Source: Alphaproteobacteria bacterium
GTDB taxonomy: Bacteria; Pseudomonadota; Alphaproteobacteria; UBA828
NCBI GenBank assembly: GCA_965243375.1
Contig: CBDEUT010000008.1
Location: 787,111-851,110 of the forward strand
Direction: 5' to 3'
Length of the DNA stretch: 64,000 nucleotides
Shown here piece by piece: positions 7,521 through 53,492 of the stretch (positions are counted from its first letter, which is position 1; each line of letters begins with the position of its first letter). The position numbers were made by a program, and so were the translations under genes. A model generated the notes under the pieces. It saw only the letters and a list, made by a program, of their open reading frames with translations. It was not told the origin of the DNA and searched no databases.

Positions 7521-7697
7521 CGCCTTGCCCCCCATGCATCGCGTGCGTCTTGTTCTATCGAAGCATGACGCAAGGCCAATAGGGATGCAAAATGCCAGTT
7601 GGGAGAGAGCGCCGGCGCAGCCTCGACCATCCGGGATGCTCAAGGTTTGCGTGCGCACGACACTGGCGCGCGGACCCTCTACGAAGGAGCTAGATCG
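7521..7697. promoter_or_regulatory. Divergent intergenic/promoter region between the flavin oxidoreductase and the aminotransferase, with an imperfect inverted repeat CATGCATCG-N18-CGAAGCATG
   Basis: 177-bp AT-richer spacer between divergent starts. Arms CATGCATCG and CGAAGCATG (8/9 complementary) lie about 18 bp apart. Confidence 0.35.
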
Positions 7698-9020: not shown

Positions 9021-9177
9021 GCGGCCTTCGAGCGCGGCGCGGGTCGACGCGACGCAGGCCGTGACATGGGTGAGAAATCCGGGCTAACGTCGGAGCGGAT
9101 GCGTTGAGCATCATTTCCCAAATAAACGAGAGAAATTCGTCAGAGCAACTGACGTGGACAAGAAGGGGAGGACAACG

Positions 9178-12314: not shown

Positions 12315-12344
12315 GGCTCCTGGACCCGCCCCGAGGCGCTTCGC

Positions 12345-14789: not shown

Positions 14790-14807
14790 GCCGGCAAGGA
14801 CAGGCGC

Positions 14808-15593: not shown

Positions 15594-15774
15594 GACATCC
15601 TCCGCGTTCGTTGGTCGGTTCCGAAGCCGCACGCCACGGGACCGCGATCCTTGCCGTCGCCGACGATCACTCGACCCATCCTAGCTTCCACGCCGTGGGC
15701 GGACCACGGCGCGGGAGGGTTTGTCGGTACTATGGCGGGATCGCGGCCGTGCCGCGCGAGAAAGGGCCGAGGCT

Positions 15775-18195
15775 ATGCCACAAACTCTCCCGACCCAGGC
15801 GGAGATCGTGATCGTCGGCGGCGGCATCGTCGGGTGCAGCATCGCCTACCACCTGGCCCATATGGGCAAGACCGACGTTCTGGTGCTCGAGAAGTCCGGC
15901 CTCACCCATGGCGCGACCTGGCATGCAGCCGGCGTAATCGGGCAGCTGCGTCCGTCGCGCAACGTGACGCGCATGCTCGGGCACACGGTGGCCCTCTACG
16001 ACAGCCTGGAGGAAGAGACCGGGCAAGCGATCGACTGGAAGCGCGTCGGCAGCCTGCGCATCGCGTCCTCCAGGGACCGGATGCTCGAGTACAAGCGGGC
16101 TGCCACCACGGCCAAGAGCTTTGGGCTCGACATGCATCTTTTGGGGCCGAGCGAGACACAGGAACTCTTCCCCATCATGAGCCTCGATGGCGTCGAGGGG
16201 TCGGCCTACATCCCGTCGGACGGCTACGTCGACCCGGCGAGCGCCACGCAGGCGCTGGCCATCGGCGCGCGCCGACGCGGGGTCAGGATCGTCGAAGGCG
16301 TGAAGGTAACGGGGTTCGGCGTGACCGGCCAGCGGGTGCACGATGTTCGCACCGCCGCGGGTTCCGTGCACGCCGACACCGTGGTCAACGCGGCCGGCAT
16401 GTGGAGCCGCGAACTCGGTCGCATGGTGGGGGTCCGCGTGCCGACGGTCGCGCTGGAGCACCAGTACATCGTCACGGAACCGATCCCCGACTTGCCCCCC
16501 GGCATGCCGACGGTGCGCGACCCCGATCTGCTCAGCTACTGGAAGCCCGACGTGGGCGGCATGGTGGTGGGCGGCTACGAGCCCGATACCGTGCCCTTCG
16601 GCTCAAGCGGTATACCGCCGGGCTTCGCCCAACAGCTACTGCCCGAGAACTTCGACCGCTTCGCGCAGATCGCCGAGCGTGCCGGCAGGCGCACGCCGAT
16701 CATCAACGAAGTCGGCGTGCGTCAGTTGATCAACGGCGCCATCCCTTACTCCGCCGATGGCGAGTTCGTCATGGGCAGGGCGCCGGAGCTCGACAACTAT
16801 TTCGTGGCGAGCGGCTTCCTCTACGGAATCGCGGGCGGGCCCGGCGCGGGCCGCATGATGGCCGAGTGGATCGTCGAGGGCCGGCCGAGCCTCGATCTCT
16901 GGTCGCTCGACATCCGGCGCTTCTCGGCCCACCACCACGCGCGCCACTTCCTGGAGAGCCGCGCGGTCGAGCTCTACGGCAAGCACTACACGATGAAGTG
17001 GCCGATCGAAGAGCCGGAGAGCGCTCGGGGCATCCGCCGCAGCCCGCTCTACTGGATGCTGAAGGAGCGGGGAGCGGTATTCGGCAGCAAGGCCGGCTGG
17101 GAGCGCGCCAATTGGTTCGCGCCAGAGGGAACCACACCACGCGACGAGCCCTCGTTCGGACGCGCGAACTGGTTCGACATTGTCGGCGAGGAGCATCGAG
17201 CGGCACGCGAACGCGTCGCCGTGATCGACCAATCGTCGTTCGCCAAGATGGAAGTCTGGGGCCCGGGTGCGCTGCTTGGCCTGCAGCGGTTGGCGGTCGC
17301 GGACCTGGACCGGCCGGTCGGCCACGCGGTCTACACCCAGCTCTGCAACGAACGCGGCGGGATCGAGGCCGATCTTACGATCAGCCGGATCGCGGAGGAT
17401 TGCTTTTACGTGGTCACCGGCACCGCCTTCGGGCAGCACGATTTCGGCTGGGTCAAGAGCCATCTTCCGGATGACGGCACGGTTGCGTCCATGGATGTGA
17501 CCTCGGCCTACGCGGTGTTGCACGTCTGCGGCCCGCGCTCCCGCGCCCTGCTGCAGCAGATTGCCGACAGCGATCTTTCGCCGGAGGTCTTTCCCTTCTC
17601 GAGGTGCCAGGACATTGTGATCGGGGCGGCGCATGTTCGCGCGATCCGGTTGTCATACTCGGGTGAGCTCGGCTGGGAGCTGCACGTGCCGACGGAATAT
17701 GCGGCCCACGTCTACGAACTGCTACGCGACGCCGGGCGCGAGCACGGGCTTGCCGACATCGGCTACCGCGCGCTCGACACGCTCAGGATGGAGAAGGGCT
17801 ACGTGGCCTGGGCCGCCGATATCTCACCGGACTACTCGCCCCTTCACGCGGGCCTCGGGCGTTTCGTCTCCCGTAGCAAGGGCGATTTCATCGGGCGGGA
17901 GGCGCTGGAGCGCATCGAGGCGGAAGGGCCGGAGGAGACACTCTGCCTCTTCACCCTGGAGCAGCCGGCTGATGTCTTCGGGGGCGAGGCGATCCTGCGC
18001 GACGGCGCTGTCCTCGGCGTGACGTCGAGCGCCAACTTCGGCCACACCGTTGGAAAGCCCATAGCCATGGGCTACGTTCCGAGCGCGGAGGCGCGGCACC
18101 GCGAATACGAGATCGAGGCGTTCTCGCGGCTGGTTCCCGCCGTGCGCCACGATGAGCCGCTCTACGATCCGAAGGGAACGCGTCAGCAGGCCTGA
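15775..18195 (+). CDS. Second dimethylglycine/sarcosine dehydrogenase-family paralog (FAD plus GcvT domains)
   Basis: MPQTLPTQAEIVIVGGGIVGCSIAYHLAHMGKTDVLVLEKSGLTHGATWHAAGV... 806 aa with the same two-domain architecture as 12345-14789. Start chosen at the internal ATG (15775) after an AGGG RBS. Confidence 0.85.
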   Translation: MPQTLPTQAEIVIVGGGIVGCSIAYHLAHMGKTDVLVLEKSGLTHGATWHAAGVIGQLRPSRNVTRMLGHTVALYDSLEEETGQAIDWKRVGSLRIASSRDRMLEYKRAATTAKSFGLDMHLLGPSETQELFPIMSLDGVEGSAYIPSDGYVDPASATQALAIGARRRGVRIVEGVKVTGFGVTGQRVHDVRTAAGSVHADTVVNAAGMWSRELGRMVGVRVPTVALEHQYIVTEPIPDLPPGMPTVRDPDLLSYWKPDVGGMVVGGYEPDTVPFGSSGIPPGFAQQLLPENFDRFAQIAERAGRRTPIINEVGVRQLINGAIPYSADGEFVMGRAPELDNYFVASGFLYGIAGGPGAGRMMAEWIVEGRPSLDLWSLDIRRFSAHHHARHFLESRAVELYGKHYTMKWPIEEPESARGIRRSPLYWMLKERGAVFGSKAGWERANWFAPEGTTPRDEPSFGRANWFDIVGEEHRAARERVAVIDQSSFAKMEVWGPGALLGLQRLAVADLDRPVGHAVYTQLCNERGGIEADLTISRIAEDCFYVVTGTAFGQHDFGWVKSHLPDDGTVASMDVTSAYAVLHVCGPRSRALLQQIADSDLSPEVFPFSRCQDIVIGAAHVRAIRLSYSGELGWELHVPTEYAAHVYELLRDAGREHGLADIGYRALDTLRMEKGYVAWAADISPDYSPLHAGLGRFVSRSKGDFIGREALERIEAEGPEETLCLFTLEQPADVFGGEAILRDGAVLGVTSSANFGHTVGKPIAMGYVPSAEARHREYEIEAFSRLVPAVRHDEPLYDPKGTRQQA

Positions 18196-18216
18196 ACTCT
18201 CTGCAAGAGCAAGAAG

Positions 18217-19167
18217 GTGACCGTGGAAGACCTCGTTCGTGCCAAGGTGGCCGAGGTGCCGGTGTTCGGACCTGAGGCCGAGGTCGGCCAGATCCTCCGA
18301 TTGGCCAGCATGACCAACCAGAGCTTCAAGGTCGCCATCGACGGGCGCGACTATGTGCTGCGGATCGCGGGCCAGGGCACAGAGGAATACATCGATCGCG
18401 AAGCGGACGAGCACGCCGCGCGGGTGACGGCGCAAATCGGCGTCAGCGCGCCGCTCGTCTACTACAGCCGGGAACACGGAATTCAGGTGACGGCGTTCAT
18501 CGAGAACAGCGCGCCGATGAACCCGGAGGTCTTGAGCGATCCGCACGCGCTGAGGCTTGCCGCCGGTGCCTTCCGCAAGCTGCATACCTGCGGGACGCCC
18601 TTTCTCGGACGCTTCAGCAACTTCGAGAAGATGGACGAGTATTTGGACGTCCTGCGCCGACACGACGCCCGCCTGCCGGACGGATACGTCGAAGCCAAGC
18701 GGGACGCCGAGACGGTGCGGCAGGCGCTCGTCGAGGCAAACATCGCGCTCGCGCCCTGTCACAACGACCCCGCGCCGGAGAACCTCGTCTTTACCGGCGA
18801 ACGTGTTTACATCCTCGATTGGGAGTTCTGCGGCAACAACGACCCGATGTGGGATCTCTCGGACCTCTCGGTCGAGGCCGACTTCGACGACCGACAGGAT
18901 GCGATCCTGCTGGAAGCCTATTGCGACGGCCCGCCCTCCAAGGCGATGGAGGCGCGGCTGGTGATCTACAAGGCAATGGCCTTCCTGCTCTGGACGCTGT
19001 GGGGCGTGCTGCAGGAGGTCAACGAGAACCAGGCGCCCGCGTATCATTTCGCGAGCTATTGGGACTACGCGATGGATCGCTTTACGCGCTCCAAAGCGAT
19101 CATGGGCCGGGAAGATTTCGGGGCGCTGCTCGACGCCGTGCGCAGCGGCGACGCGGGTTCCGCATGA
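18217..19167 (+). CDS. Choline/ethanolamine-kinase-like phosphotransferase (APH/ChoK superfamily)
   Basis: Brenner motif HNDPAPENLVF and ChoK-type motif ILDWEFCGNNDPMWDLSDL. GTG start at 18217 after AAGAAGG. The stop overlaps the ATG of the downstream permease (ATGA). Confidence 0.8.
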   Translation: MTVEDLVRAKVAEVPVFGPEAEVGQILRLASMTNQSFKVAIDGRDYVLRIAGQGTEEYIDREADEHAARVTAQIGVSAPLVYYSREHGIQVTAFIENSAPMNPEVLSDPHALRLAAGAFRKLHTCGTPFLGRFSNFEKMDEYLDVLRRHDARLPDGYVEAKRDAETVRQALVEANIALAPCHNDPAPENLVFTGERVYILDWEFCGNNDPMWDLSDLSVEADFDDRQDAILLEAYCDGPPSKAMEARLVIYKAMAFLLWTLWGVLQEVNENQAPAYHFASYWDYAMDRFTRSKAIMGREDFGALLDAVRSGDAGSA

Positions 19168-20932: not shown

Positions 20933-22015
20933 TCAGGCGCGCAAACGCTCGCCCGTTGCGGTATCGAACGCGAGCACCTTCACTGGATCGGTGACGAGCC
21001 TGATCGCATCGCCATAGCGGACCGCATCGTTGCGGATCGTCTTGGCTGTCAGCGGCGGCCCCTGGGACGAGAGCTCGAGGATCGTCTCGGCGCCGAGATG
21101 TTCCACGGCCTCGACCCGGCAGTCCATCTCCACGCCGTCGCTCGCCGTGCCGAGCGTGAGGAACTCCGGGCGGATCCCGAGCGTGACGGCGCGCGCCTGC
21201 GCCGCAGCATGGGCGGGCGGCAGCCTGAGCGTGAGATCGCCCGCGTGAAAGACCAATGCTCCATCGCTCGGCTCGATCGAGCCCGCGATCAGGTTCATCG
21301 TGGGGCTGCCGATGAAGCCCGCGACAAACTTGTTGTCCGGATTGTCGTAGACGGCGAGCGGCGTGCCGATTTGCTGGATACGCCCTTCGTTCATGACGAC
21401 GATGCGATCCCCCATGGTCATCGCCTCGGTCTGATCGTGGGTGACATAGATCATCGTCGCCGAGAGCCGGTGGTGCAGCTTGATCAGCTCGCCGCGCATC
21501 GCCATGCGCAGCTTGGCGTCGAGATTGGATAGCGGCTCGTCGAACAGGAAGACCGCCGGGTCCCGTACGATGGCCCGCCCCAGCGCGACCCTCTGCTGCT
21601 GCCCGCCCGAGAGCGTCTTGGGCTTGCGCGGAAGCTCCTCGGTGATGCCGAGGATTGTCGCCACGTCCTGAATGCGACGATCGATCTCGTCACGCGGCAC
21701 CTTCTTCAGCTTCAGGGCGAAGCCCATGTTGTCGGCCACCGACATGTGCGGGTAGAGGGCGTAGGACTGGAACACCATCGCGACGTCGCGGTCCTTGGCG
21801 TGAACGCTGGCGACATCGCGGTCGCCGATGAAGATGCTCCCCGAAGTGACCGCCTCCAGTCCCGCGATCATCCGCAGGCATGTCGTCTTGCCCGAGCCCG
21901 AGGGGCCGACCAGGACGACGAACTCGCCGCTTTCGATGTCGAGATCGACGGCATCGACGGCGGCGACGGCGCCGAAGCGCTTGGAGAGGCGCTCGAGCCG
22001 CACAGCCGTCATCAC
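20933..22015 (-). CDS. ABC transporter ATP-binding protein (MalK/UgpC-like, with C-terminal TOBE domain)
   Basis: Walker A GPSGSGKTT, signature LSGGQQQRVA, Walker B LFDEPLSNLD. 360 aa. Confidence 0.9.
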   Translation of the reverse strand: MMTAVRLERLSKRFGAVAAVDAVDLDIESGEFVVLVGPSGSGKTTCLRMIAGLEAVTSGSIFIGDRDVASVHAKDRDVAMVFQSYALYPHMSVADNMGFALKLKKVPRDEIDRRIQDVATILGITEELPRKPKTLSGGQQQRVALGRAIVRDPAVFLFDEPLSNLDAKLRMAMRGELIKLHHRLSATMIYVTHDQTEAMTMGDRIVVMNEGRIQQIGTPLAVYDNPDNKFVAGFIGSPTMNLIAGSIEPSDGALVFHAGDLTLRLPPAHAAAQARAVTLGIRPEFLTLGTASDGVEMDCRVEAVEHLGAETILELSSQGPPLTAKTIRNDAVRYGDAIRLVTDPVKVLAFDTATGERLRA

Positions 22016-22178
22016 AAGGCTCCGAGGTAGATCATCTCGGCGGCCACGAAGAGCGCCACACCCCAGAACCGGACCTCGCCGGGCGTGAGCCAGCGTTTAC
22101 GCGTGTTCCAGATTCCCAGGAGAATCTGAAACGGAGCGCAGACGGCAAAGACGATGATGTGCTCCAGCACGGCAGCGC

Positions 22179-22376
22179 CTACGGGGCGTTCTTGTCCGCT
22201 CGGAGGACGAACAGGAACGGCACGCTCGCGATCAAGGGGAAGGCGAACAGGCCGATCGGCACGACGATGAAGGGCGAGATATCGGCCTCGATCATCGCGC
22301 CGCAGCCAACGACAACCAGAAAAGTATAAAGAACGGCCCAGAGCGAGGCGCGAAGATTGGGGCGATCGAGAGGCAT
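22179..22376 (-). CDS. Hypothetical small membrane protein (65 aa)
   Basis: MPLDRPNLRASLWAVLYTFLVVVGCGAMIEADISPFIVVPIGLFAFPLIASVPFLFV... has two hydrophobic helices. A second hydrophobic reading frame (22016-22180) follows in a different frame. Confidence 0.3.
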   Translation of the reverse strand: MPLDRPNLRASLWAVLYTFLVVVGCGAMIEADISPFIVVPIGLFAFPLIASVPFLFVLRADKNAP

Positions 22377-22630
22377 GGTGCGAGCACCTCGCTCAGTGCG
22401 GCTCGGCTTGCCGGCGGGCGCTTGTTGGGCCGCATCGACCATAGCACCGGGCCTGGGTGCGGTACACCGCCACGGCTGGGGGACAGCACGGAACACCTCG
22501 ACGCGGCACGGCGCGTTGCTACACTGCCCCTCGCCAATCGATCGCCGAAAGGCCTTTCGCCGATGGAGGCCGCGGCGCAGGATCGCGCGCCGGGGAGGCT
22601 CATGGGCAACGGGAGACGGACCCGCGACAC

Positions 22631-22918
22631 ATGACCCAAAAACCCACATCGGATGACGAGGTCTATTCGCTGATCGGCGGCGCGCGCGGCATGGAGGCGC
22701 GCAGCGGCGACGCGATCGAGCGCGCGCGGGCGCTGCCGATCTGGTCCGGCGCGGTCGAACCCGCGCTGCTAAGCGGGGGCTTGAGCAACATCAACCTGAC
22801 GGTGGACGACGCCGGCGAGCGCTACGTGATCCGGGTCGGCGAGGATGAGCCCGTCTTCGGCGTCTTTCGCGACCACGAGCTCCTGGCCTTTCGCGCGGCT
22901 CATGCGGCAGGTGTGTAA
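22631..22918 (+). pseudogene. N-terminal fragment (95 aa) of a second choline-kinase-like phosphotransferase gene, interrupted by the tandem-integrase element
   Basis: MTQKPTSDDEVYSLIGGARG...GGLSNINLTVDDAGERYVIRVGEDEPVFGVFRDHELLAFRAAHAAGV* parallels the N-terminus of the 18217 kinase. It ends at the 12-bp repeat followed at once by TAA. Confidence 0.7.
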
Positions 22919-23301
22919 CCCTTAACGCCCGAAGGGCGTCGAGCAACGCCCCTCCACACGCAAGCGCTTCGGGCCGAGGAAACCATGCGGTTCCCACAGT
23001 TTAGCCCGAGCGGCGCTTGAGCGCCCGGCCTCGCCGCGCATGCGATGAAGACGGTTCCGGACCCGCCGCGCAGCTTACCGGGTCATTATAGGAAGCACGC
23101 CTGGCGGCGCAAGCGCGCTGTTGGCGGTCGTGGTCGACGGGACGGAGGTTGTCCCGGTAGTCAATAGGGGGGACCCGCGCGGCTTCGCGTAGCGCCTCGC
23201 GTTACGCGGAGCGAAGACGCGCGGGGGGTGCCTGTTGACCCACCGGGGCAACCGGGCCGCGTGCTCGTGCCGGCGCCACGACGACACCGGCGGCGATGCC
23301 G

Positions 23302-24477
23302 TCACGGATCGGACGCGCCGGGGGCGAGCGACATCGCCTCGGCGATGATGCTGCCGACATGCTCGGCCGCCGCGACGAGGTGGTCGTCGGCCAGATGCGC
23401 ATAGCCGGCGGTCGTGGACTGGCGGCGATGCCCGAGCAGCTTGCCGACCAGGGGCAGGTTCTCGCCGGACATGACGGCGTGACTCGCTACGGCGTGTCGC
23501 AGATCGTGGAGCCGCGCCCGGCCGATCCCGGCGTCGGCGCAGATCGCGTGCCATCGGACCCGCACCTGGTCCTGCCACCATGCGCTTCGGGCGTGCTCGG
23601 GGAACACGAACGCGTCGGGCCGCCGCTCGCCGGGGAGCGCATCGAGGATCGCGCGCGCGGGCGAACCCAGCGGCACGGTGCGCGGCCCGGCCTTGGCGTC
23701 GTCGAGCTGGATCGTGTCCCGCCCGATGTTGCGCCAGCGCAGTGTCAGCACCTCGCCGCGCCGGCAACCGGTAAGCGCGAGCAGCCGGATCGCGGCGACG
23801 GTCTCGGGCCAGTCGGCGGCGCGCGCGTCGAGCGCACGGCCGAGCCGTTCGAGCTCGCCGGTGTCGAGGAAGCGCGCGACCGGCTTCTTCGGGTTCATCC
23901 TGATCCCGAGACAGGGGTTGGTGCCGGGCGCCCGCCATCCCCACTCCTCGGCCCGGAACATCATCGCGCGCAGGATCTCCAGCGCCCGGTTCGCCGCGCC
24001 GGGCCAGTCGCGGCTCGCGGCGTCGAACCAGGCGGCCACGTCTTCGGGGCCGAGCATGTCGAGCCGCATGGCGCCGAACGCGGGCAGGATGCGCGCCTTG
24101 AGATAGATGTGCACGGTCCGGCGTCCCGACGGCTTCAGGCCGGGGCCGCAACAGCGCAGATACTCGTCGGCGAAGTCCTTCACCGTCGGCGCGGCCCTCG
24201 CCTTGCGGGCCTCCTCGGCGGGATCGTCGCCCGCGCGGATACGCGCCAGCATCTCGCGGGCGCGGCGCCGCGCTTCGGCCAGCGCGATCTCGCCGTGCCG
24301 GGCTAGGCCCAGGCGCCGGGTCCGGCCGTCGATGCGCGCCTGGACGATCCACACCTTGCGCCCGCTCGGATGGATGCGCAGCCCGAAGCCCGGCAGCGCC
24401 CGGTCGAACAGGATGGTCTCCTTCTCGCCGGGCCGGCTGTCGCGGGCGAGCTTCGCGGTCAGGTCAACCGTCGGCAT
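23302..24477 (-). CDS. Tyrosine recombinase / integrase, P4-type with N-terminal DUF4102-like arm-binding domain (int-1)
   Basis: 391 aa. N-terminus MPTVDLTAKLARDSRPGEKETILFDRALPGFGLRIHPSGRKVWIVQ..., catalytic box HDLRHAVASHAVMSG...LLGHRRQSTTAGYAHL (R..H..R..Y). Confidence 0.9.
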   Translation of the reverse strand: MPTVDLTAKLARDSRPGEKETILFDRALPGFGLRIHPSGRKVWIVQARIDGRTRRLGLARHGEIALAEARRRAREMLARIRAGDDPAEEARKARAAPTVKDFADEYLRCCGPGLKPSGRRTVHIYLKARILPAFGAMRLDMLGPEDVAAWFDAASRDWPGAANRALEILRAMMFRAEEWGWRAPGTNPCLGIRMNPKKPVARFLDTGELERLGRALDARAADWPETVAAIRLLALTGCRRGEVLTLRWRNIGRDTIQLDDAKAGPRTVPLGSPARAILDALPGERRPDAFVFPEHARSAWWQDQVRVRWHAICADAGIGRARLHDLRHAVASHAVMSGENLPLVGKLLGHRRQSTTAGYAHLADDHLVAAAEHVGSIIAEAMSLAPGASDP

Positions 24478-25660
24478 GGCCGCCCCCTCCCTCCCGCTCC
24501 CGGCCGCTTCCGGCCAGCGCCGCCTGGATGCGCCCGGAGACGCGCTCGGCGGCCTCCGCGACCGACCGGTCCGACAGGTGGACGTAGCGCTCGGTGGTCT
24601 CGACCAGGGCGTGGCCGAGCAGCTTGGCGATGGTCACCATGTCCACGCCGTTCATGGCGGCGACGGAGGCCCAGCTATGCCGGCAGTCATGCAGGCGCAC
24701 GTCGAACAGCCCGGCCTCGCGGCGGATACGGCCCCACTGCACGTCGATGTTCCGGATCGGCCGGGTCGGCGGGCGGCCCGGAAACAGATACGGGCAGTCC
24801 TCGCCGTAGCGCGGGATCGCATCGATCACCGCGCGCGCGGCTCCCGACAGCCACACCGTGCGCGGCCCCGACTTCGAATCGGGAAGCATGATGCGCTTGT
24901 CCCTGATCCAGTCCCATTCGAGCGCGAGGACCTCGCCGACCCGGCAGCCGGTCAGCAGCAGCAGGCGAATGACGGCGACGACATGCGGGCACCAGAACTC
25001 GTCGCGGGTGAGCACGGCGTTGAGCCGGGCGAACTCCTCGGGCGTGAGATAGCGTTCCTTGGGCGCCATCGGGTAGCGCCGGGTGTTCCGGCAGGGGTTG
25101 GTGTTGTGGAGGCGATAGCCCCACAGTTCGGCCGTCTTCATCATCACCGACAGCACCGGCATCGCCCGGTTGGCGGTGCCGGGCCGGTTGGCCATGGAGG
25201 CGAACCAGTCCTGAACGTGCTCGACCGCGATGGCGTCCACGGTCATGTCCCCGAAGGCGGGCAGGATGACGTCGCGGATGAAGCGCCGGTTGCCCGCCAG
25301 CGTGCTCGGCTTCCAGTGACGCGCGTGACGTTCGATGAACTCCTCGGCGAACTCCGTCATGGGACGGCCGGGATATCGGGGGCCGTCCCCCGTCTCCGGC
25401 GTCTCAACCAAGGTCGTGAGCGCCCGGCGCGCCTGGTTGCGCGCCTCGGGCAGGCTCATCCGGTCGGCAGGTCCGAGGGTGACCGAACGCACCCCGCCGT
25501 CGGGCAGCCGGCGGCGCAGGAAGAAGCGCCGGGCGCCGTTCGGGTAGATGCGCACACCGAGCCCGGAGATCGCGTCGTCCCAGACGGCATACTCCTTCTC
25601 GCGGGGCCGGGCCGCCGCGATGCGACGGGCGAAGGAAGGGCGGGAATCTGGCTTTGCCAT
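24464..25660 (-). CDS. Tyrosine recombinase / integrase, P4-type paralog (int-2); overlaps int-1 by 14 bp
   Basis: 398 aa. MAKPDSRPSFARRIAAARPREKEYAVWDDAISGLGVRIYPNGARRFFL..., catalytic HDCRHSWASVAAMNG...LLGHALVETTERYVHL. Confidence 0.9.
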   Translation of the reverse strand: MAKPDSRPSFARRIAAARPREKEYAVWDDAISGLGVRIYPNGARRFFLRRRLPDGGVRSVTLGPADRMSLPEARNQARRALTTLVETPETGDGPRYPGRPMTEFAEEFIERHARHWKPSTLAGNRRFIRDVILPAFGDMTVDAIAVEHVQDWFASMANRPGTANRAMPVLSVMMKTAELWGYRLHNTNPCRNTRRYPMAPKERYLTPEEFARLNAVLTRDEFWCPHVVAVIRLLLLTGCRVGEVLALEWDWIRDKRIMLPDSKSGPRTVWLSGAARAVIDAIPRYGEDCPYLFPGRPPTRPIRNIDVQWGRIRREAGLFDVRLHDCRHSWASVAAMNGVDMVTIAKLLGHALVETTERYVHLSDRSVAEAAERVSGRIQAALAGSGREREGGGGHADG

Positions 25661-25853
25661 GTGGCGGCTCCTTAGTCAGGGGCCGCGCGGCAGCGGGTCA
25701 ATATAGGAAGCGGCCGCGGCGGCGATTGCACAGGCAAGCCACGGGGCCGGAAGAGACAGGGTGTACCCTAACCCGCTCTAACTACGGAACTTTCTCTCCA
25801 TCCATGCATCGGCGAGACCAGGCAGAAATTGCGCGGTACGGGCGGCAGGTGTG

Positions 25854-26549
25854 GCGCCCGAGGTCGTCTATGGCGAGCCGGGTCTCATGGTGATCCGCTT
25901 CATCGAAGGCCGCTCGCTCCTGCCTGCCGACGTGCGTGAGCCAGCGCGTCTCACCGAGGTGGCCCGTCTCTTTCGCCGGCTTCACGATGAAGCACACAAG
26001 CATCTGGACTCGACGGGCTTCATGTTCTGGCCATTCCAGCATCAGCGTTCGCACATTCGGCTGTTGGAGCAGCGCTCCGATCGGCTTTACGAGCGCTGGC
26101 GCGACATGCTGCCGGGCCTCGCTCTAGCGAACGAGGAGCTGGAGCGCGCGCTCGGCCCGGTCAACGTGGTCCTTGGCCACAACGACCTCAACCCGCAGAA
26201 CATCATGGACGACGGCGAGCGGCTCTGGTTCGTGGATTGGGAATTCGCGGGCTTCGTGGTGGACCTGTTCGATCTCGGCGTGCTGGCCATGAATATCGAA
26301 ATCGGATCCGGCGAGAGCGACGTCTTTCTCGAGAACTACTATGACGAGCCGGTCACCGACGCGCTGCGCTACCGCTTCGCGGCCGCCAAAGTCGCCGCGG
26401 CCCTGCGCGAGACGACCTGGAGTTTCGTCTCCGAGATGATGGACAAGCCCATCGACTTCGATTTCCGCATCTATTCCACCATGAATGCGGACCGCTACGA
26501 GCGCATGTACGCCGAATTCAGCGAGACCTACGGCACGCCGGGGCAGTAG
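25854..26549 (+). pseudogene. C-terminal part (231 aa) of the interrupted choline-kinase-like phosphotransferase
   Basis: APEVVYGEPGLMVIRFIEG... contains HNDLNPQNIM and FVDWEFAGF motifs. The frame is open upstream only back to 25782, with no genuine start. It is contiguous in sense with the 22631-22918 fragment. Confidence 0.7.
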
Positions 26550-26562
26550 TGCGAGGGGAACG

Positions 26563-27450
26563 ATGAGCGAAGAGAGACGACCCGACGAGACCTGCCGCGT
26601 CGCCGTCGATGGCGGTGAGGTGGCGGTCTACAGCTATGGCGCGGGCGAGCGGGTCCTGCTCTGCCTTCACGGCGGCCCTGGGCTTCCTTGCGACTACGTG
26701 CGGGACAGCCATTCGGTCATGGCGGATCACGGCTATCGCGTGGTGGTCTATGACCAGCTCGGTTGCGGCCAGTCCGACAAGCCGGACGACACCTCGCTCT
26801 TCAACGTGCCTCGCTACGTGGAGGAGGTCGAAGCGGTGCGAGCCGCGCTTGGGCTCGGCCGCGTCCACTTGCTCGGACAGTCCTGGGGCACGTGGCTGGG
26901 CACGGAATACTGCCTGAAGTACCAGGGCAACGTCGCATCGTACGTGATCGCGAACGGCTCCGGCAGCGTGCCGCACACCGTATCCGAAATGAAGCGCCTG
27001 CGCGCCGCCCTCGGCGCCGAGACGGTGGCCATGATGCAGCGCCACGAAGCGCAGGGAACGACCGATCACCCCGCCTACGAGGCAGCCGTTACCATTCTCT
27101 ACCGCAGGCATCTCTGCCGGGTCGACGACTGGCCCGCACCGCTGCAGCGCTCGCTCGACGGCATCAACATGGCGGTCTACGGCACGATGTGGGGCCCCAA
27201 CGAGTTCTGCTGCGTCGGCACGCTCAGGGACTGGGATCGCCTTGCGGACATGGCACGTATCACCGTGCCCTGCCTGATCGTGAGCGGCCTCCACGACGAG
27301 CTGACCCCCGAAGGGGCGATGCTCATGCAGGAGGCGCTGCCGAATGCGGAGAGCGTCGTCTTCCCCAACAGCTCGCACACGCCCTTCTTCGAGGAACCGG
27401 ACGCATATATCGCAGCGTTGCGTGACTTCCTGGATCGCCAGGAGGGCTGA
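26563..27450 (+). CDS. Alpha/beta-hydrolase, proline iminopeptidase-like
   Basis: MSEERRPDETCRVAVDGGEVAVYSYGAGERVLLCLHGGPGLPCDY... with nucleophile elbow GQSWG. GAGGGGAA RBS before the ATG at 26563. Confidence 0.8.
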   Translation: MSEERRPDETCRVAVDGGEVAVYSYGAGERVLLCLHGGPGLPCDYVRDSHSVMADHGYRVVVYDQLGCGQSDKPDDTSLFNVPRYVEEVEAVRAALGLGRVHLLGQSWGTWLGTEYCLKYQGNVASYVIANGSGSVPHTVSEMKRLRAALGAETVAMMQRHEAQGTTDHPAYEAAVTILYRRHLCRVDDWPAPLQRSLDGINMAVYGTMWGPNEFCCVGTLRDWDRLADMARITVPCLIVSGLHDELTPEGAMLMQEALPNAESVVFPNSSHTPFFEEPDAYIAALRDFLDRQEG

Positions 27451-27569
27451 ACGACCACGCCGCGACGCCTGAGCGGTCGCGCGCGAGATGGTCGCCAAAT
27501 GGGCAGCAACGTCCCCCGGCGCACCTGAGTCCTGCATACGCCGACGGTGAGGATCGCCTCCGGGACTGT

Positions 27570-28023
27570 CATGCGTCTCGGCGGAGAACCCGGCGACCAT
27601 GTAGGCGATGATGTATTCGTTCAGGCTGAGGACGACGGCGAAGGCGAAGCCCGACACGACGTACGGGCGCACCAGAGGAAAGACCACGGTCAGAAACACG
27701 GTTCGCCGGTTTGCGCCCATGGTCTGCACGGCTTCGATCAACGAGCGGTCGATGCCTTCGAGGCCAAGCGAGATGGTGACTAGCGGCAGCGAGACGGACA
27801 CGGCGAGAAGGCCGGCAAGCACGGCGATGATCGCCGAGTTGGTCAGGGACCCGGCCCGGTCGCTCTTGGTGAAGAGCTCGCCGTACCACCGCCGGGAGAA
27901 TCCCTCCGGCGGAAACATGAGACGCTTCGGCTGGTTGACGGATACCCCGGCAACCACAACGAGGGGCGCGGCCAGAAAAACCAGGACGCCGGCGACGAAT
28001 GCCCTGCCGAGCCAGCCCGTCAT
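27570..28023 (-). pseudogene. Degenerate ABC permease remnant (PotC-like) with an internal deletion and a lost C-terminus
   Basis: N-terminal TM1 plus a GFSRRWYGELF loop and TM2 are followed directly by the EAA loop (IEAVQTMGANRRTVFLTVVFPLVRPY) and one TM. The TM3/TM4 segment is absent. The frame then runs on as antisense of the hydrolase gene without a recognisable permease C-terminus. Confidence 0.45.
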
Positions 28024-28247
28024 GGCTGGCTGCCTTTGCGGTCGCCGCTGACGGCAAGGGCCAGGTCGACCAATGCGAGCGATACGAGAAGGAAGGGTCT
28101 TGCCTAGCTGAGTGCCCTGTGGTGTGTGCTAAAGCTAGGCATGGCAATGAAAAACAAGTACGCGAGGCATTCAGGCATCTCGGAGGCCCGCAGGTCGGCG
28201 AAGTCGAAGTGGGCGGGCGCCAAGAAGCTGCTGGGGCTGCCCCCATT

Positions 28248-28652
28248 TCACTCTCTCTTGCCAAGGAACGCGGCGTCGACATCGACGGCGTAGCCGTTGG
28301 CGAGGGCGTTGGTCTCGTTGGCCATGCCCACCACCGCCATCAGCTCGGCCAGCATGGCGTCGGTCATCCCCTGCCGCCGGGCGCCTGCGGTGTGGGAGCG
28401 GATGCAGTACTCGCAGCCGTTGGTGGCGCTCACCGCGACGTAGATCAGCTCCTTGGTAAGCGGGTCGAGGGCGCCCGGCGCCATCACCTCCTTGATGCTG
28501 TTCCAGGTGCGCGCGAGAGTCGGCGGATCGTTGGCCAGCACCTTCCAGAAGTTGTTGATCCAGTCGGTCTTGCGGGTCTCCATGATGTCGTCGTAGACCG
28601 CGCGGACCTCCGGCGGGGCGTCGTCGTACTCCACCATCGCGACCGTCGCCAT
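28248..28652 (-). CDS. Carboxymuconolactone decarboxylase / AhpD-like family protein
   Basis: MATVAMVEYDDAPPEVRAVYDDIMETRKTDWINNFWKVLA...VSATNGCEYCIRSH (CxxC AhpD motif). Confidence 0.75.
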   Translation of the reverse strand: MATVAMVEYDDAPPEVRAVYDDIMETRKTDWINNFWKVLANDPPTLARTWNSIKEVMAPGALDPLTKELIYVAVSATNGCEYCIRSHTAGARRQGMTDAMLAELMAVVGMANETNALANGYAVDVDAAFLGKRE

Positions 28653-28734
28653 GCTTTCCTCCATGATGTGCGTGCGCCTCCCGCCGGCATAGCCCGAATG
28701 CCGGCGCGCGGCCAGCGTCGCCTGGAGAGGCGGC

Positions 28735-33445: not shown

Positions 33446-33668
33446 CTCGGTCGTTCCTCCCTGTAGCGACCGCGCGAATCCCCGCTCGGCCAGTCCTCCG
33501 CCGCCAGTTTGGCCGGCAGGGCGGGTTCGATCAAGTGAGGCGGACCCCGATGCGCAGGAGAGGCTCGCACCGGCGCAAACCGCTTGGCATGGCCTCCCGA
33601 ATAGGCGTAAAGGTGGACGTGGTGAGCGCCGATACGTAGCCCAGCGGGGCCCGCAACACGATTGGCCG

Positions 33669-35834: not shown

Positions 35835-35886
35835 GGCGGCGGGAGGGCGTCTCCCGCCTTCAACGAGTCAGAACGCGCGGCAGCAC

Positions 35887-48478: not shown

Positions 48479-49411
48479 GTGGCGAAGACGATCTATTTCA
48501 GCCATCCCGTTTGCGCGGACCACGACCCCGGCGCGCAGCACCCGGAATCGGGCGCGCGGCTTGGGGCGATCGAGGAGGCGCTTAGCGCCGACACGTTCGC
48601 GACGCTCGATCGCCGCCAGGCACCGGTGGGCGAGCCCGAGATCCTCGCCTGGGCGCACGACGAGAAGCTGGTGGACGCCATTCTCGCCAACGTGCCCGAT
48701 GAGGGGCGCGTCGCCATCGACGCCGACACGGTGCTGTCGCCCGCCTCGGGCGAGGCCGCGCGCCGCGCGGCAGGCGCGGTCGCGGCTGCGGTGGACGCGG
48801 TGTTCGCCGGCGAGGCGGACAACGCCTTCTGCGCGGTGCGCCCGCCGGGCCACCATGCCGAGCCGCGCCGGCCGATGGGGTTCTGCCTCTTCAACAACGT
48901 CGTGATCGGCGCCGAGCGGGCACGGCGCGCCCACGGCTGCACGCGCATCGCCGTGGTCGACTTCGACGTCCACCACGGCAACGGCACGCAGGCGGCGTTC
49001 GAGCAGGACGGCGACCTCTTCTTCGGCTCCACCCATCAGTGGCCGCTCTATCCGGGCACGGGTGCCGCGAGCGAGACCGGCGTTGGCAACATCGTCAACG
49101 CGCCGCTCAGCCCGGGCACCGGTTCGGCCGGCTTCCGCGACGCGATGGAGAGCAAGATGCTGCCCGCGCTCCGCGCCCACCGGCCCGAGCTGATCCTGAT
49201 CTCCGCCGGCTTCGATGCGCACCGCGATGATCCGCTGGCGAACCTGGAGCTGGTCGAGGACGACTACCGCTGGATCACCACGGAGCTGACCCGGCTCGCG
49301 GGCGAGGTGTGCGACGGGCGCGTGGTCTCGACCCTCGAAGGCGGCTACGACCTGCGCGCCCTCGGCGCCAGCGCCGCCGCCCACGTCGAGACGCTGATGG
49401 CGGCGGATTAA
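48479..49411 (+). CDS. Histone deacetylase-family protein (acetoin utilization AcuC / acetylpolyamine amidohydrolase-like)
   Basis: DFDVHHGNGTQ and GGYDL motifs. 310 aa. Confidence 0.85.
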   Translation: MAKTIYFSHPVCADHDPGAQHPESGARLGAIEEALSADTFATLDRRQAPVGEPEILAWAHDEKLVDAILANVPDEGRVAIDADTVLSPASGEAARRAAGAVAAAVDAVFAGEADNAFCAVRPPGHHAEPRRPMGFCLFNNVVIGAERARRAHGCTRIAVVDFDVHHGNGTQAAFEQDGDLFFGSTHQWPLYPGTGAASETGVGNIVNAPLSPGTGSAGFRDAMESKMLPALRAHRPELILISAGFDAHRDDPLANLELVEDDYRWITTELTRLAGEVCDGRVVSTLEGGYDLRALGASAAAHVETLMAAD

Positions 49412-49707
49412 CCCGCAGCGTCCTCCTCGGGCGTGAGGGTCTTGAGCGCGAGCGCGTGCACGTCGGTGCGCAACTCGTCTTCGAGCACACTGTAGACCAG
49501 GCGCTGACGCGCGATTCGGGAGAGACCGGCGAAGCGCTCGGAGGCGATCTCGACGATGAAGTGGCTCTCGCCCTCGGGCCGCGCGCCGACATGACCCGCG
49601 TGACGCGCGGAATCGTCCACGATGTCGAGGCGGCTCGGCGCAAGCGCCTCGCTCAGCTTCTGGCGGATCGCGGCCTGAACACGGCCGCCTGTGCTCTCAG
49701 TCTCCAT
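49408..49707 (-). CDS. bolA: BolA-family regulator
   Basis: 99 aa. ...SRLDIVDDSARHAGH...HFIVEIASERFAGLSRIARQRLVYSVL matches the BolA motif. Confidence 0.8.
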   Translation of the reverse strand: METESTGGRVQAAIRQKLSEALAPSRLDIVDDSARHAGHVGARPEGESHFIVEIASERFAGLSRIARQRLVYSVLEDELRTDVHALALKTLTPEEDAAG

Positions 49708-49746
49708 GTCTCAGCCCAACCCGAACCGGCCACTCCTTACATCGTC

Positions 49747-49769
49747 ATGCGCGGACTTGATCCGCGCAT
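49747..49769. repeat. Perfect hairpin ATGCGCGGA-CTTGA-TCCGCGCAT (9-bp stem)
   Basis: Read directly. Shares its loop and stem-proximal GGA/TCC with the hairpin at 49823-49843. Confidence 0.6.
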
Positions 49770-49822
49770 CCATCCGGCCGACCTCCCGCCGAGGTTGAGC
49801 GGCTGCGTGGATGGCCGGGACA

Positions 49823-49843
49823 CCCCCGGACTTGATCCGGGGG
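49823..49843. repeat. Perfect hairpin CCCCCGGA-CTTGA-TCCGGGGG (8-bp stem), same CTTGA loop
   Basis: Read directly. Lies between the tmoD stop (49902) and the bolA start (49707). Confidence 0.6.
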
Positions 49844-49901
49844 CCGGCCATGACGAGGCAGGGGCGGCGTACAAGACAGTGCGAATTTTTGTGGGACGCC
49901 A

Positions 49902-50225
49902 CTACAGCCGCTTCTCGAAGTAGAAGCGCATGGTGTCGTCGGTGGTCTCGATCCGGCCCGAGAACGAGCTGAGATTGACCTCTAGCTCGGCGATCTTGAA
50001 CGGCCGGCCGAGCACTCGCGCCACGGTCCCGGCCCGCACCACGCACTCGCCCTCGGTCTCCACCCTGACGTAGGCGACACGGTCCTCGACCCTGAACTCC
50101 TTGCCCGGGTTGTCTTCCTGCAAGGCCTCGACCACGGCGTCGGCGACCTCGCCCGCGCGCAGCACAGGGCCTACCGCGTTCCTGCGGGCTACCTCGTCAC
50201 CGCTCATCGCCGTCTCCTCCGCCAC
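49902..50225 (-). CDS. tmoD: Soluble diiron monooxygenase effector/coupling protein (TmoD/MmoB/DmpM family)
   Basis: 107 aa. Position and size fit the operon. The family match rests on size and context plus a weak motif. Confidence 0.65.
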   Translation of the reverse strand: MAEETAMSGDEVARRNAVGPVLRAGEVADAVVEALQEDNPGKEFRVEDRVAYVRVETEGECVVRAGTVARVLGRPFKIAELEVNLSSFSGRIETTDDTMRFYFEKRL

Positions 50226-50234
50226 GCCGCGCCG

Positions 50235-50570
50235 TCAGGGCTTGGCATGCTTGGGCTCGATGCCCTCGACGTCTACCAGCACGTCCTCGCCCTCGATCTT
50301 GACCGGGTACTGGGCGATCTCGGCATGGCCGGGGTTCACCCCCTTGCCGGCGACGATGTCGAACTCCCAGAGGTGCATCATGCAGGTCAGCACCCGGCCG
50401 TCGAGGTCGCCGTCCACCAGATCGACCTCCTGATGCGGGCATTGCGCCTGGACCGCGTGAATGCCCTCGCCTTCGACATGGACCAGCAGCACCTCGGTAC
50501 CGTCCACGTCGAAGGTCTCCATGTCGCCTTCCCAGATATCGTCCAGCGTGCAGGCTTTCTTGAACGCCAT
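50235..50570 (-). CDS. tmoC: Rieske [2Fe-2S] ferredoxin component of a multicomponent monooxygenase (TmoC-like)
   Basis: CPHQ...17 aa...CMMH is a Rieske CxH...CxxH motif. 111 aa. Confidence 0.8.
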   Translation of the reverse strand: MAFKKACTLDDIWEGDMETFDVDGTEVLLVHVEGEGIHAVQAQCPHQEVDLVDGDLDGRVLTCMMHLWEFDIVAGKGVNPGHAEIAQYPVKIEGEDVLVDVEGIEPKHAKP

Positions 50571-50602
50571 ACGTCGGTCACTCCATCCCCGGTGCGCGCG
50601 GG

Positions 50603-50875
50603 CTAACGGGGCTCTTCGAAGTAGATGTCGATGCAGTCGTAGAAGCGGATGCCCGCCTTCTCGACCGTGAGATCGCGCGGCCAGGGCGGCGCGGAGTCGT
50701 CCTGGGTGGTGGGCCGCACGCGGAGGGTCAAGCCGGGCTTGTCGGCAACGTGGAGCCCGATCGAGTGGAAGGCGCAGGTCGCCGCCACCTCGTCCATGGT
50801 CTGGCCCGGCTCGATTTCCACCGTCTTGATGTGCGCATCCTGCTGGAAGCGCGAGAGAATGGGGAACGCGCTCAT
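50603..50875 (-). CDS. tmoB: Monooxygenase hydroxylase gamma subunit (TmoB-like, about 90 aa)
   Basis: Small acidic ORF between the alpha subunit and the ferredoxin, as in tmoABCDEF operons. Confidence 0.6.
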   Translation of the reverse strand: MSAFPILSRFQQDAHIKTVEIEPGQTMDEVAATCAFHSIGLHVADKPGLTLRVRPTTQDDSAPPWPRDLTVEKAGIRFYDCIDIYFEEPR

Positions 50876-50908
50876 GCCGCCCTCAACAACGCGATGAGTG
50901 CCGCTTGG

Positions 50909-52399
50909 CTATTCCGCCGCCTGGGCGCGAAAGCCCTCGACCCAGCCGTAATCGTCGCCGTCGCGGCCGCCCTCGCTGATCACGCCGATGCCCATGTAGG
51001 TGAGCACGTTCTCCAGCGTCGGCGGGTCGATCTCTCCCGAATACATGCGGTCCACGATGGTCTCGTGGTCCTTGTAGCGCTCCGGGTCGGTATCGAAGAT
51101 CCAGCGGCACACCTCGGTGCAGAAGTTGTAGCGCCGCTCGCCGTACTCGCGCTGGTAGGCGCGCGCACCCCACTCCGGGCCCGGCCGGTGCGAGATCGGA
51201 ATCTGGCACATGTTGCAGATGATCGGGATGCACTGGGGGTGCGTCTTCTCCTCGTGCCCTTGCAGCAGGTTGTTGGTGATGACGTCCCAATAGCTGCCGT
51301 AGCTCTCGTTCCAGCCGGGGTATTTCTCCTCCAGCCACGCGCGTTCCTCGGGCCCCACCGCACCCGGCGGGTTCCACCAGACCGTCGGCCGCCACGACCA
51401 GATTCCGCCCTGCTGGCAGTGATGGTGGTTATCGATATCGAGCAGAAAGATGTCCCAATACCACGGCCGTTCCAGGCCGAGGTCCTGCACCTGCCGCTCC
51501 CACTGGTTGATCACCCACTCGTGCATGAACTCCTTGAAGGACATGTGCCGCTGCTCCAGCGGGATGTAGTAGTCCATCGGGATGCCGACGGTGATCGAGA
51601 AGAGCCGCCAGACGCGCCAGAGCGCGATGTCCATCGCCTGCTGCGCTTCCTCCTTGCGGCCGTTGCGGATCATGATCTCGATAGTGGGCGTGCCGAGCTG
51701 GGCGTGACGGGCCTCGTCCGACTGGATGCTGGTGATCAGGTTGGCGAAGGTGTGGTCGCCCATGTTGGCGGCGTCGGTGGAGAGGCCGATCATCTGCAGG
51801 TTGGTGAGCGCGGTCTCGAAGGCGAAGGAGACCATCACCGAGGACGTGATCGCGTCCCGCGTCATCATGATGTCGTCCATGGCGTGACGCCCGCCGAGCA
51901 CCGCCCAGTTCTTGGAATGCTGCGCCTGGTGGGCCCAGTCGTACTGGCGGTCCAGGTGCACCAGCTCGTGCGGGAAGAAGAGCTGGAGCTGGGTGTGCCG
52001 CAGCTCGTCGAGCATGCCGTAGACCGACATGTTGCGCATCGCCGGAGACGGGCCGAAGCGCGACATCCGCGCCTGGAACTGGCAGGCCTGATACTCGGTG
52101 AGCGCCACGGCGCCGTAGTGCAGCTTGAGCACGCTGGCCCAGCCCTCGTCGGCCTGGTCGTAGAACTTGGACCGCGCCAGTGCCGCCTTCACCGAGTAGG
52201 CGGCGGAATCCTTCTCGCGCTGGATGTTCACGTACTCGCGGTAGGAGACCTTGTAGGGCTCGTCGAAGGTCTCCCACTCCTCGGTGGGAATGCCGTAGGG
52301 ATCGCCCATCTCGGGCGGAAACAGCTCCTCCTGCGCGACGTAGGAGGGCGTCCAGTTGGTATCCCGCGCGATATCGTACCACTCGGAGCGTTCGAGCAT
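50909..52399 (-). CDS. tmoA: Soluble diiron monooxygenase hydroxylase alpha subunit (group-2, toluene/alkene monooxygenase TmoA-like)
   Basis: 496 aa. Diiron ligand helices MLDELRHTQLQ (E..H) and QSDEARHAQLG (E..H). The N-terminus WYDIARDTNWTPSYV and the WNPP region are colinear with T4MO TmoA. GGGAGG RBS. Confidence 0.9.
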   Translation of the reverse strand: MLERSEWYDIARDTNWTPSYVAQEELFPPEMGDPYGIPTEEWETFDEPYKVSYREYVNIQREKDSAAYSVKAALARSKFYDQADEGWASVLKLHYGAVALTEYQACQFQARMSRFGPSPAMRNMSVYGMLDELRHTQLQLFFPHELVHLDRQYDWAHQAQHSKNWAVLGGRHAMDDIMMTRDAITSSVMVSFAFETALTNLQMIGLSTDAANMGDHTFANLITSIQSDEARHAQLGTPTIEIMIRNGRKEEAQQAMDIALWRVWRLFSITVGIPMDYYIPLEQRHMSFKEFMHEWVINQWERQVQDLGLERPWYWDIFLLDIDNHHHCQQGGIWSWRPTVWWNPPGAVGPEERAWLEEKYPGWNESYGSYWDVITNNLLQGHEEKTHPQCIPIICNMCQIPISHRPGPEWGARAYQREYGERRYNFCTEVCRWIFDTDPERYKDHETIVDRMYSGEIDPPTLENVLTYMGIGVISEGGRDGDDYGWVEGFRAQAAE

Positions 52400-52478
52400 C
52401 GCCGGCCTCCCGCACGCTGACATTTCCGGGGCGCCGCGGCCTTGCGCCGCAGCCGCAGCAACGCCCGCCATTGTCATG

Positions 52479-53402
52479 TCATCGCGGGGCGGACGCAAGC
52501 AGGGACCCCGAGCGCCAAGGCGCAAGCGCCTCAAGAGCCCGATCCGGATAGTCCGACACGATCCCATCGACGCCGAGCCGGGCGAGCGCCTCCATGTCGG
52601 GCACCTCGTTCACCGTCCAGACGATGACCTTGAGGCCGAGCGTCCGGGCTTTGGCGAGCGCGGCTGCCGTCAGGTCGGCATGGAAGGGCAACCAGACCGG
52701 CGCCCCGAACCGATGGACCAGCCGCGGCACCGAGCCGCCTTCCGCGTCGAGACTCAGGCCCGCCATCCAGGGCGAGGGCTCGGCCCGGCCGCGCAGCACG
52801 GTGTCGCGCCAGCCTCGTTCGGAGGTCAGGCAGGCGATTGAGATGTCCGGCGCAAGCGTGCGCAACGCCCGAAGCACGCGCCAGTCGAAGGACTGGACGG
52901 TCGCCCGGCAGACCGTCCCCTCCGCCCGCAGCACCTCTGCCACCGCCCGCGCGAGCGCCTCCGGTCCCGCCGATTCGTGCGGCTCCAGCGGCGACGACTT
53001 GATCTCGACATTGAAGCGGACCGCGCCGGCTGCCGGCCGCCGCCCCAGCGCCAGGACGTCCGCCAGAGTGGGGATTCGCGCGCCGTCGCGCGGCTCCTGG
53101 TGCGGGAACCGCAGGGCTGTCCGGCTGCCCGGCCAGGCTCTGCCGACATCGAGGCCGGACAGTTCCGCCACGTCCAGGTCCTTGAGCAACGGCCCCGGTC
53201 GTTCCAGCCACGCCCCGCCGGCGTCGCGCGTATGGTCCGGGTTGAGCGCCGTGTCGTGATAGACGACGGGAACGCCGTCCCGGGTCATGCAGACGTCGAA
53301 CTCCAGCGCATCGACGCCGAGAGCGATGGCGCGCTCGAACCCGGGTAGCGTGTTCTCCGGCAGCAATCCGCGCGCGCCGCGATGGCCGTGTATCTCCAAC
53401 AT
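52479..53402 (-). CDS. Glycerophosphodiester phosphodiesterase family protein
   Basis: MLEIHGHRGARGLLPENTLPGFERAIALGVDALEFDV matches the GDPD HR(G) and E-D motifs. Confidence 0.8.
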   Translation of the reverse strand: MLEIHGHRGARGLLPENTLPGFERAIALGVDALEFDVCMTRDGVPVVYHDTALNPDHTRDAGGAWLERPGPLLKDLDVAELSGLDVGRAWPGSRTALRFPHQEPRDGARIPTLADVLALGRRPAAGAVRFNVEIKSSPLEPHESAGPEALARAVAEVLRAEGTVCRATVQSFDWRVLRALRTLAPDISIACLTSERGWRDTVLRGRAEPSPWMAGLSLDAEGGSVPRLVHRFGAPVWLPFHADLTAAALAKARTLGLKVIVWTVNEVPDMEALARLGVDGIVSDYPDRALEALAPWRSGSLLASAPR

Positions 53403-53492
53403 CCGCGCGGCATCATAGCGGAACGGCGCGGGCGCCGAGGCCACACCCGCCACGGCCAGGGACGCGCCTCAGGATCTCTTGTCCGGGATGAA

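Follow-up and report, generated by a model that had tools for sequence, protein, structure and literature searches.

A toluene monooxygenase-type gene cluster without an adjacent beta subunit is probably one part of a split operon in a clade of uncultured Alphaproteobacteria

Results

A four-gene soluble diiron monooxygenase cluster

In a 64,000-nucleotide stretch from an alphaproteobacterium (GenBank assembly GCA_965243375.1, contig CBDEUT010000008.1, positions 787,111 to 851,110 of the forward strand; hereafter the window), four adjacent genes on the minus strand encode the alpha and gamma subunits of a hydroxylase, a Rieske ferredoxin and an effector protein of a soluble diiron monooxygenase (SDIMO). 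We consider it probable that the operon of a functional group-1 (toluene/alkene-type) SDIMO has been split and that this cluster is its larger half. The sequence data point to a functional enzyme whose genes lie at two or more loci.

The canonical group-1 'TMO' (toluene monooxygenase) operon runs alpha-gamma-ferredoxin-effector, followed by beta and a reductase (review PMC11825192). Four of these components are present in the window, all on the minus strand. The hydroxylase alpha gene (50909–52399; TmoA/TouA-like, 496 aa, with a C-terminal YHS domain; Pfam Phenol_Hydrox 2.1e-71 and YHS) is directly followed by the gene for gamma, a protein of the TmoB family (50603–50875; 90 aa; Pfam TmoB 6.3e-18). 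Next come the genes for a Rieske [2Fe-2S] ferredoxin, TmoC (50235–50570; 111 aa; Pfam Rieske 2.3e-17), in whose translation a CPH...CMMH motif of the CXH...CXXH form is visible, and for the effector or coupling protein of the MmoB/DmpM family, TmoD (49902–50225; 107 aa; Pfam MmoB_DmpM 9.5e-31). Open reading frames (ORFs) and Pfam matches agree with an earlier note on this DNA, which had read the order alpha, gamma, Rieske ferredoxin and effector from the same strand.

This order and the same four Pfam families are found in tmoABCDEF of Pseudomonas mendocina KR1, which encodes toluene 4-monooxygenase (T4MO), and in touABCDEF of P. stutzeri OX1, which encodes toluene/o-xylene monooxygenase (ToMO). 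The window alpha matches TouA of ToMO and TmoA of T4MO from end to end (E ~1e-200). All six diiron ligands (E, EXXH, E, EXXH) are kept in the alignment to TouA (1t0q), and the conserved active-site threonine likewise aligns with TouA and TmoA. Unlike T4MO and ToMO, which have beta after the effector as well as TmoF, the window has neither at this locus, and its neighbours are housekeeping genes, with aromatic catabolic genes absent from among them.

Missing after the effector gene are therefore the beta subunit (~330 aa, a paralogue of alpha without the ligands) and the TmoF reductase. The earlier note had found no gene for either at the locus, and the same is true of all 64 kb. With two beta queries from relatives at 81–82%, tblastn matched only the paralogous alpha gene (E > 0.6), and a profile hidden Markov model (HMM) of beta, built from ~50 related loci, had no match in the six frames of the window. 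A TmoF-type reductase was likewise found neither by tblastn nor by an HMM built from the same ~50 loci and run over the six frames.

Conservation and selection across relatives

Relatives were collected in a scan with six search peptides and one genome per species, which returned 64 loci. The layout alpha-gamma-Rieske-effector-bolA-HDAC-DegP recurs at the same syntenic locus in ~15 species-level relatives (L003–L016 and L034). In every bolA-context relative whose locus reaches that far bolA follows tmoD, and none of these loci contains a beta gene in its 10-kb flanks (the L007 locus ends within tmoD). Synteny between the window and the bolA-context relatives extends over more than 20 kb at 80–93% nucleotide identity, which argues that the tmoABCD-bolA arrangement is inherited vertically in a genus-level clade. 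The source organisms are uncultured Alphaproteobacteria/Rhodospirillales represented by metagenome-assembled genomes (MAGs), and the clade is probably sponge-associated, to judge from record names (RHO3, ROBB21) that place several of the MAGs in sponge metagenome studies. The earlier suggestion that an SDIMO is uncommon in such a context did not hold up, as hundreds of alphaproteobacterial homologues were found.

Ratios of nonsynonymous to synonymous substitution (dN/dS) were calculated pairwise between the window and 14 bolA-context relatives (dS 0.2–0.5; 0.18–0.31 for alpha). They amounted to 0.02–0.10 for alpha, 0.05–0.18 for the Rieske gene, 0.07–0.19 for TmoB and 0.10–0.23 for TmoD, compared with 0.05–0.41 for flanking genes. 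In most comparisons alpha had the lowest value of the neighbourhood, and the values of tmoABCD did not exceed those of most flanking housekeeping genes. All four tmo genes are under purifying selection. In the window they carry no frameshift, stop or excess amino-acid change, and the window alpha is 99% identical to those of L003 and L034. Among more partial homologues, three alpha variants (P0009, P0016 and P0030) are 95–96% identical to the window protein over only 48–81% of its length and may be recombinant, frameshifted or chimeric assemblies.

The spacer between tmoD and bolA

Downstream of tmoD lies bolA (49408–49707, minus strand; Pfam BolA 2.1e-29), a conserved neighbour outside the enzyme. 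The spacer between the two genes, put at ~190 bp in the earlier note, measures 194 bp (49708–49901). As that note stated, the gap holds no ORF for beta, and neither tblastn nor the HMM detected any beta similarity within the 194 bp. The spacer is only 20–41 bp long in L003, L008, L009 and L016. In the window and eight relatives it spans 177–194 bp and contains the same GTCATGGCCGG...CCGGCCATCC / GGATGC.CGGA.CAAGTCCG.GCATGAC palindromes, which make up two hairpin-forming units with CGGATCAAGTCCG in each. A different, G/C-rich repeat of 271 bp occupies the same spot in L006 and L011. From its sequence, the 194-bp spacer is identified as an insertion of a small palindromic repeat, similar to a miniature inverted-repeat transposable element, and not as a leftover of beta. 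A beta remnant was ruled out at this position because the spacer is a repeat element without counterpart in some relatives, and the view that non-coding DNA 'replaces' tmoE has to be given up accordingly.

Orphan beta genes in relatives

In the sister loci L017–L021, whose alpha proteins are 86–92% identical to that of the window, beta follows immediately after tmoD. These loci differ from the window in having a contiguous tmoABCDE and another genomic context, with no bolA, HDAC or DegP flank. Other relatives carry beta as an orphan gene. A search of the protein collection with a beta query returned betas from the chromosome of L016, one of them an orphan. This gene (P0181, L016/L070) starts at 1,664,577 on a complete 4.15-Mb chromosome, 33 kb downstream of tmoD, in the order aminotransferase, CCG protein, unknown, GMC oxidoreductase, CMD-family protein, substrate-binding protein (SBP, minus strand), beta, thiolase, enoyl-CoA hydratase (ECH) and acyl-CoA dehydrogenase (ACAD). 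The block from the aminotransferase to the CMD-family gene is syntenic with positions 33546–28255 of the window and 86% identical to them. L071, a 473-kb contig, has its orphan beta in an L070-like context and is 90% identical at the nucleotide level to positions 35881–28264 of the window. Elsewhere the surroundings vary: in L073 the beta-thiolase-ECH-ACAD module adjoins an integrase and a relaxase, in L074/L075 the orphan beta comes after RecN-LigA-LplA-SMR, and in L072 a lone, more distant orphan beta is flanked by genes for an FMN dehydrogenase and an ABC transporter. Because the left flank differs between L070/L071, L073, L074 and L072, the position of the module is not fixed in the clade. 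In relatives of the window beta is found tens of kilobases away as a separate transcription unit, unlike in T4MO and ToMO.

The orphan betas are all intact genes of 330 aa with dN/dS of 0.16–0.30, compared with 0.13–0.23 for adjacent betas. In the beta tree, those of L070, L071 and L073 nest inside the clade of adjacent betas from L017–L021, which are their nearest relatives, and they are 80–83% identical to the adjacent betas of L017, L018 and L020. Betas linked to alpha paralogues are only 63–70% identical to the orphans and distant in the tree. On the basis of this nesting, and of the distance to the paralogue-linked betas, we assign the orphan betas of L070, L071 and L073 to the cognate tmoE lineage. 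The beta of L074 belongs to this lineage too. One route by which the module might have arisen, excision as a whole together with beta, was rejected, as thiolase-ECH-ACAD genes are not found downstream of the adjacent betas in L017–L020.

A promoter-like motif upstream of alpha and of orphan beta

Upstream of the window alpha, ~70 nt 5' of its start codon, a pattern match identifies the promoter-like motif CTTGCG-N18-GACAAT (52470–52499, minus strand). In its general form, CTTGC-N19-GANAAT, the motif has this single match in the 64 kb, with 0.06 expected. Every L003–L020 and L034 locus, including the sister loci L017–L020 with their adjacent betas, has one copy upstream of alpha, and L070, L071, L073 and L074 each have one upstream of the orphan beta; among 73 loci there are only two other matches. 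Homology among L070, L071, L073 and L074 starts exactly at CTTGCG-N18-GACAAT, ~88 bp 5' of the beta start codon. The sharing of the motif is consistent with co-regulation of the alpha and beta loci and is no proof of it.

The unlinked reductase

Only L024, L028 and L042–L046, the last five being canonical gammaproteobacterial loci, have a TmoF gene after beta, and L041 has one upstream of alpha; tblastn and HMM searches found none in the other sister operons. Since most sister operons likewise have no TmoF, the unlinked reductase is a lineage trait and not a local truncation, contrary to the earlier note, which had taken its absence as a sign that the operon was truncated. The marine TMO-like operons L001, L002, L023, L026 and L035 (MarineAlpha10 and Rhodospirillaceae MAGs), with alpha proteins 80–82% identical to the window's, share the alpha-gamma-Rieske-effector order, and the reductase gene is missing from them as well. 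Unlike in the window, beta stands immediately behind the effector gene, the genes after it encode a PRISE-type epimerase/reductase and a 2OG-Fe(II) oxygenase, and an Abhydrolase_11 gene lies upstream. In T4MO, tmoF has been reported to be dispensable for activity in vivo.

Variation in operon architecture

Several further arrangements were observed among the related loci, and on this sequence record operon architecture in the lineage is plastic. In L016, positions 6885–9931 (minus strand) hold a second hydroxylase set, alpha2 (69% identity), gamma2 and beta2 (344 aa), which is transcribed divergently from the adjoining tmoABCD; the six search peptides of the scan are all absent from its alpha2 paralogue. 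No ferredoxin or effector gene belongs to this second set, which suggests that the two L016 hydroxylases share TmoC and TmoD. L030 (5265–10602) and L032 (550–5884) have a tandem alpha-gamma-alpha2-gamma2-Rieske-effector-beta arrangement with two alpha/gamma pairs and one beta in a single operon. An independent beta-less arrangement, with an epimerase gene directly after the effector, is found in L022 (10001–13533), and L037 (10001–11775) consists of an alpha-gamma pair alone, with unrelated genes (nitrilase, amidohydrolase) after it. Both come from a single MAG, CBDCGS01, which also holds a third cluster, L047, with beta. In L019 (11800–14500), tmoB and the Rieske gene are separated by inserted genes for a periplasmic binding protein and a SnoaL-like protein, and L033 has a gap of similar size. 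Natural alpha-gamma fusions of ~600 aa (Phenol_Hydrox, YHS and TmoB; 58–67% identity) occur in P0014, P0020, P0022, P0025 and P0074. Finally, an alpha2-gamma2-effector2-beta2 cluster (L036/L067) is assigned to the MAG of L010; its host is uncertain because the same cluster also appears on short 'Bryobacterales'-binned contigs (L039, P0261) from the same sponge metagenome series.

The orphan-beta site in the window

Synteny of the window with L070 and L071 ends at the stop (~28263) of the CMD-family gene (28248–28664, minus strand). Beyond it the window diverges from L070 and L071, in which SBP, orphan beta, thiolase, ECH and ACAD come next; none of these five genes of L071 has a match in the 64 kb. 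The place is taken by an island (22000–28263) with two tandem tyrosine-recombinase (phage integrase) genes on the minus strand (23302–24477 and 24464–25660), each matching Pfam Phage_integrase and Arm-DNA-bind_3. The integrases are flanked by a truncated choline-kinase ORF (25851–26549) and by an abhydrolase gene within the island. Also in the island is an ORF without Pfam match (27569–28282), whose translation reads as an ABC-permease fragment (~27570–28020) that is apparently internally deleted. No tRNA lies near the integrases in the island, and no clear att-like direct repeats were found beside them.

Discussion

A split operon and its alternatives

For the window genome, we favour with moderate confidence a split operon with beta encoded elsewhere, and for the clade as a whole we hold this view more firmly. 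The tmoABCD genes would have been kept together at the bolA locus and transcribed from their own promoter, and tmoE would have moved out in an ancestor of the alphaproteobacterial clade. In the relatives, tmoE is kept as a stand-alone gene behind a promoter-like element of the form found at alpha, and genes for a thiolase, an enoyl-CoA hydratase and an acyl-CoA dehydrogenase usually come after it. An (alpha-beta-gamma)2 hydroxylase could then be assembled in trans from the products of the two loci, with an unlinked reductase feeding electrons to the Rieske ferredoxin, as in most sister operons. We infer that the window genome carries an orphan-type beta outside the window, that the two loci are co-expressed and that the hydroxylase is assembled in this way. 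The earlier note had named supply of beta and reductase in trans as one of two options; support for it comes from the orphan cognate betas of relatives only.

Several observations weigh against a split operon with a retained beta. The search for the beta of the window's own genome covered the 64-kb window, and did not locate it. L016 is the only relative in which tmoABCD and an orphan beta are seen on one molecule, and within the bolA-context group it diverges most. The promoter-like pattern was defined post hoc from these very sequences. The upstream regions of alpha and orphan beta have no homology beyond two hexamers, so that the motif may simply be a generic strong promoter; for the same reason a duplication of the promoter between alpha and orphan beta was ruled out. 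Finally, the island in the window occupies the exact site of the relatives' orphan-beta module, and the module could have been lost from the window genome rather than moved.

Such a loss forms the most serious competing account, which we nevertheless regard as unlikely: the window genome would recently have lost its orphan beta module through an integrase-associated rearrangement, leaving tmoABCD intact but newly useless and bound to decay. It would explain why L070/L071 synteny stops exactly where SBP-beta-thiolase-ECH-ACAD starts, why the window has two integrases and truncated genes there, and why no beta occurs in the 64 kb. Absence at one site says little, though, when the left flank of the module varies among L070/L071, L073, L074 and L072, and the four window genes are free of frameshifts, stops and excess amino-acid change, with an alpha 99% identical to those of L003 and L034. 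Less likely still is that the cluster is complete in a non-canonical way, alpha and gamma working without any beta or with one that belongs to a paralogous monooxygenase cluster. Arrangements that would suit this idea are the divergent alpha2-gamma2-beta2 set adjoining tmoABCD in L016, the alpha2-gamma2-effector2-beta2 cluster (L036/L067) in the MAG of L010, the single beta for two alpha-gamma pairs in L030 and L032, the independently beta-less L022 and the alpha-gamma-only L037. On the other side, a beta of the cognate lineage is retained under selection as an orphan in the clade, which argues that it is still needed, and no beta of any kind occurs in the window. For L036 the binning is in doubt, a beta of the identical cluster being present in a 'Bryobacterales' bin. 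The PDB matches to alpha are, moreover, all toluene monooxygenase hydroxylases, and these are (alpha-beta-gamma)2 complexes. As for the decaying remnant of a truncated operon that the earlier note had offered as its other option, the absence of beta and reductase genes beside tmoD is what would be expected of it, but we reject it as highly improbable: the same four-gene locus is kept across ~15 species with dN/dS of 0.02–0.23 (0.02–0.10 for alpha at dS 0.18–0.31), the relatives have neither frameshifts nor dN/dS close to 1, the diiron ligands are intact and the promoter motif is conserved.

Relation to known systems and implications

The enzyme family is well known, and a stable, clade-wide split of its hydroxylase with a separately promoted orphan beta appears to be undescribed. 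In the literature searched we found no description of an SDIMO hydroxylase with alpha and beta at different loci, and nothing specific on SDIMOs of sponge symbionts. A parallel is found in sphingomonads, where the component genes of Rieske dioxygenases are scattered, one oxygenase being encoded at separate loci and components being shared; those dioxygenases belong to another enzyme family than the window monooxygenase.

In surveys and annotation pipelines that count complete tmoABCDEF operons (PMC13603553 is an example), this abundant marine lineage would come out as incomplete or non-functional. How an (alpha-beta-gamma)2 hydroxylase is put together when its genes are transcribed separately, and to what extent paralogous hydroxylases share beta, ferredoxin and effector, are questions for which the clade would offer a natural test case. 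The beta-thiolase-hydratase-dehydrogenase module may point to the physiological substrate of this branch of TMOs. There is a slim chance that a cognate beta is lacking altogether from the window genome, and perhaps from others of the clade, the conserved alpha-gamma pair being active without beta or with a borrowed one. If so, the system would be a minimal or 'mix-and-match' SDIMO, with several alpha-gamma pairs drawing on one beta and one set of ferredoxin and effector; such use is hinted at by the gene orders of L016, L030/L032 and L022/L037.

Other genes in the window

Directly upstream of the alpha promoter motif, a GDPD gene was called at 52479–53453 on the minus strand. It is a presence/absence polymorphism, present in the window, L003, L004, L005, L008 and L034 and absent from L006 and L009–L015, and a functional tie to the monooxygenase is unlikely because of this variation. 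Farther away, positions 12315–19167 resemble a neighbourhood for osmolyte or one-carbon catabolism that is unrelated to the monooxygenase. They include a DAO and GCV_T fusion dehydrogenase of the dimethylglycine/sarcosine dehydrogenase type (15721–18195) and, upstream of it, its apparent paralogue (12315–14789), which was recognised by nucleotide similarity, a 98-nt stretch being 70% identical between the two. A choline/ethanolamine kinase-like gene lies at 18217–19167.

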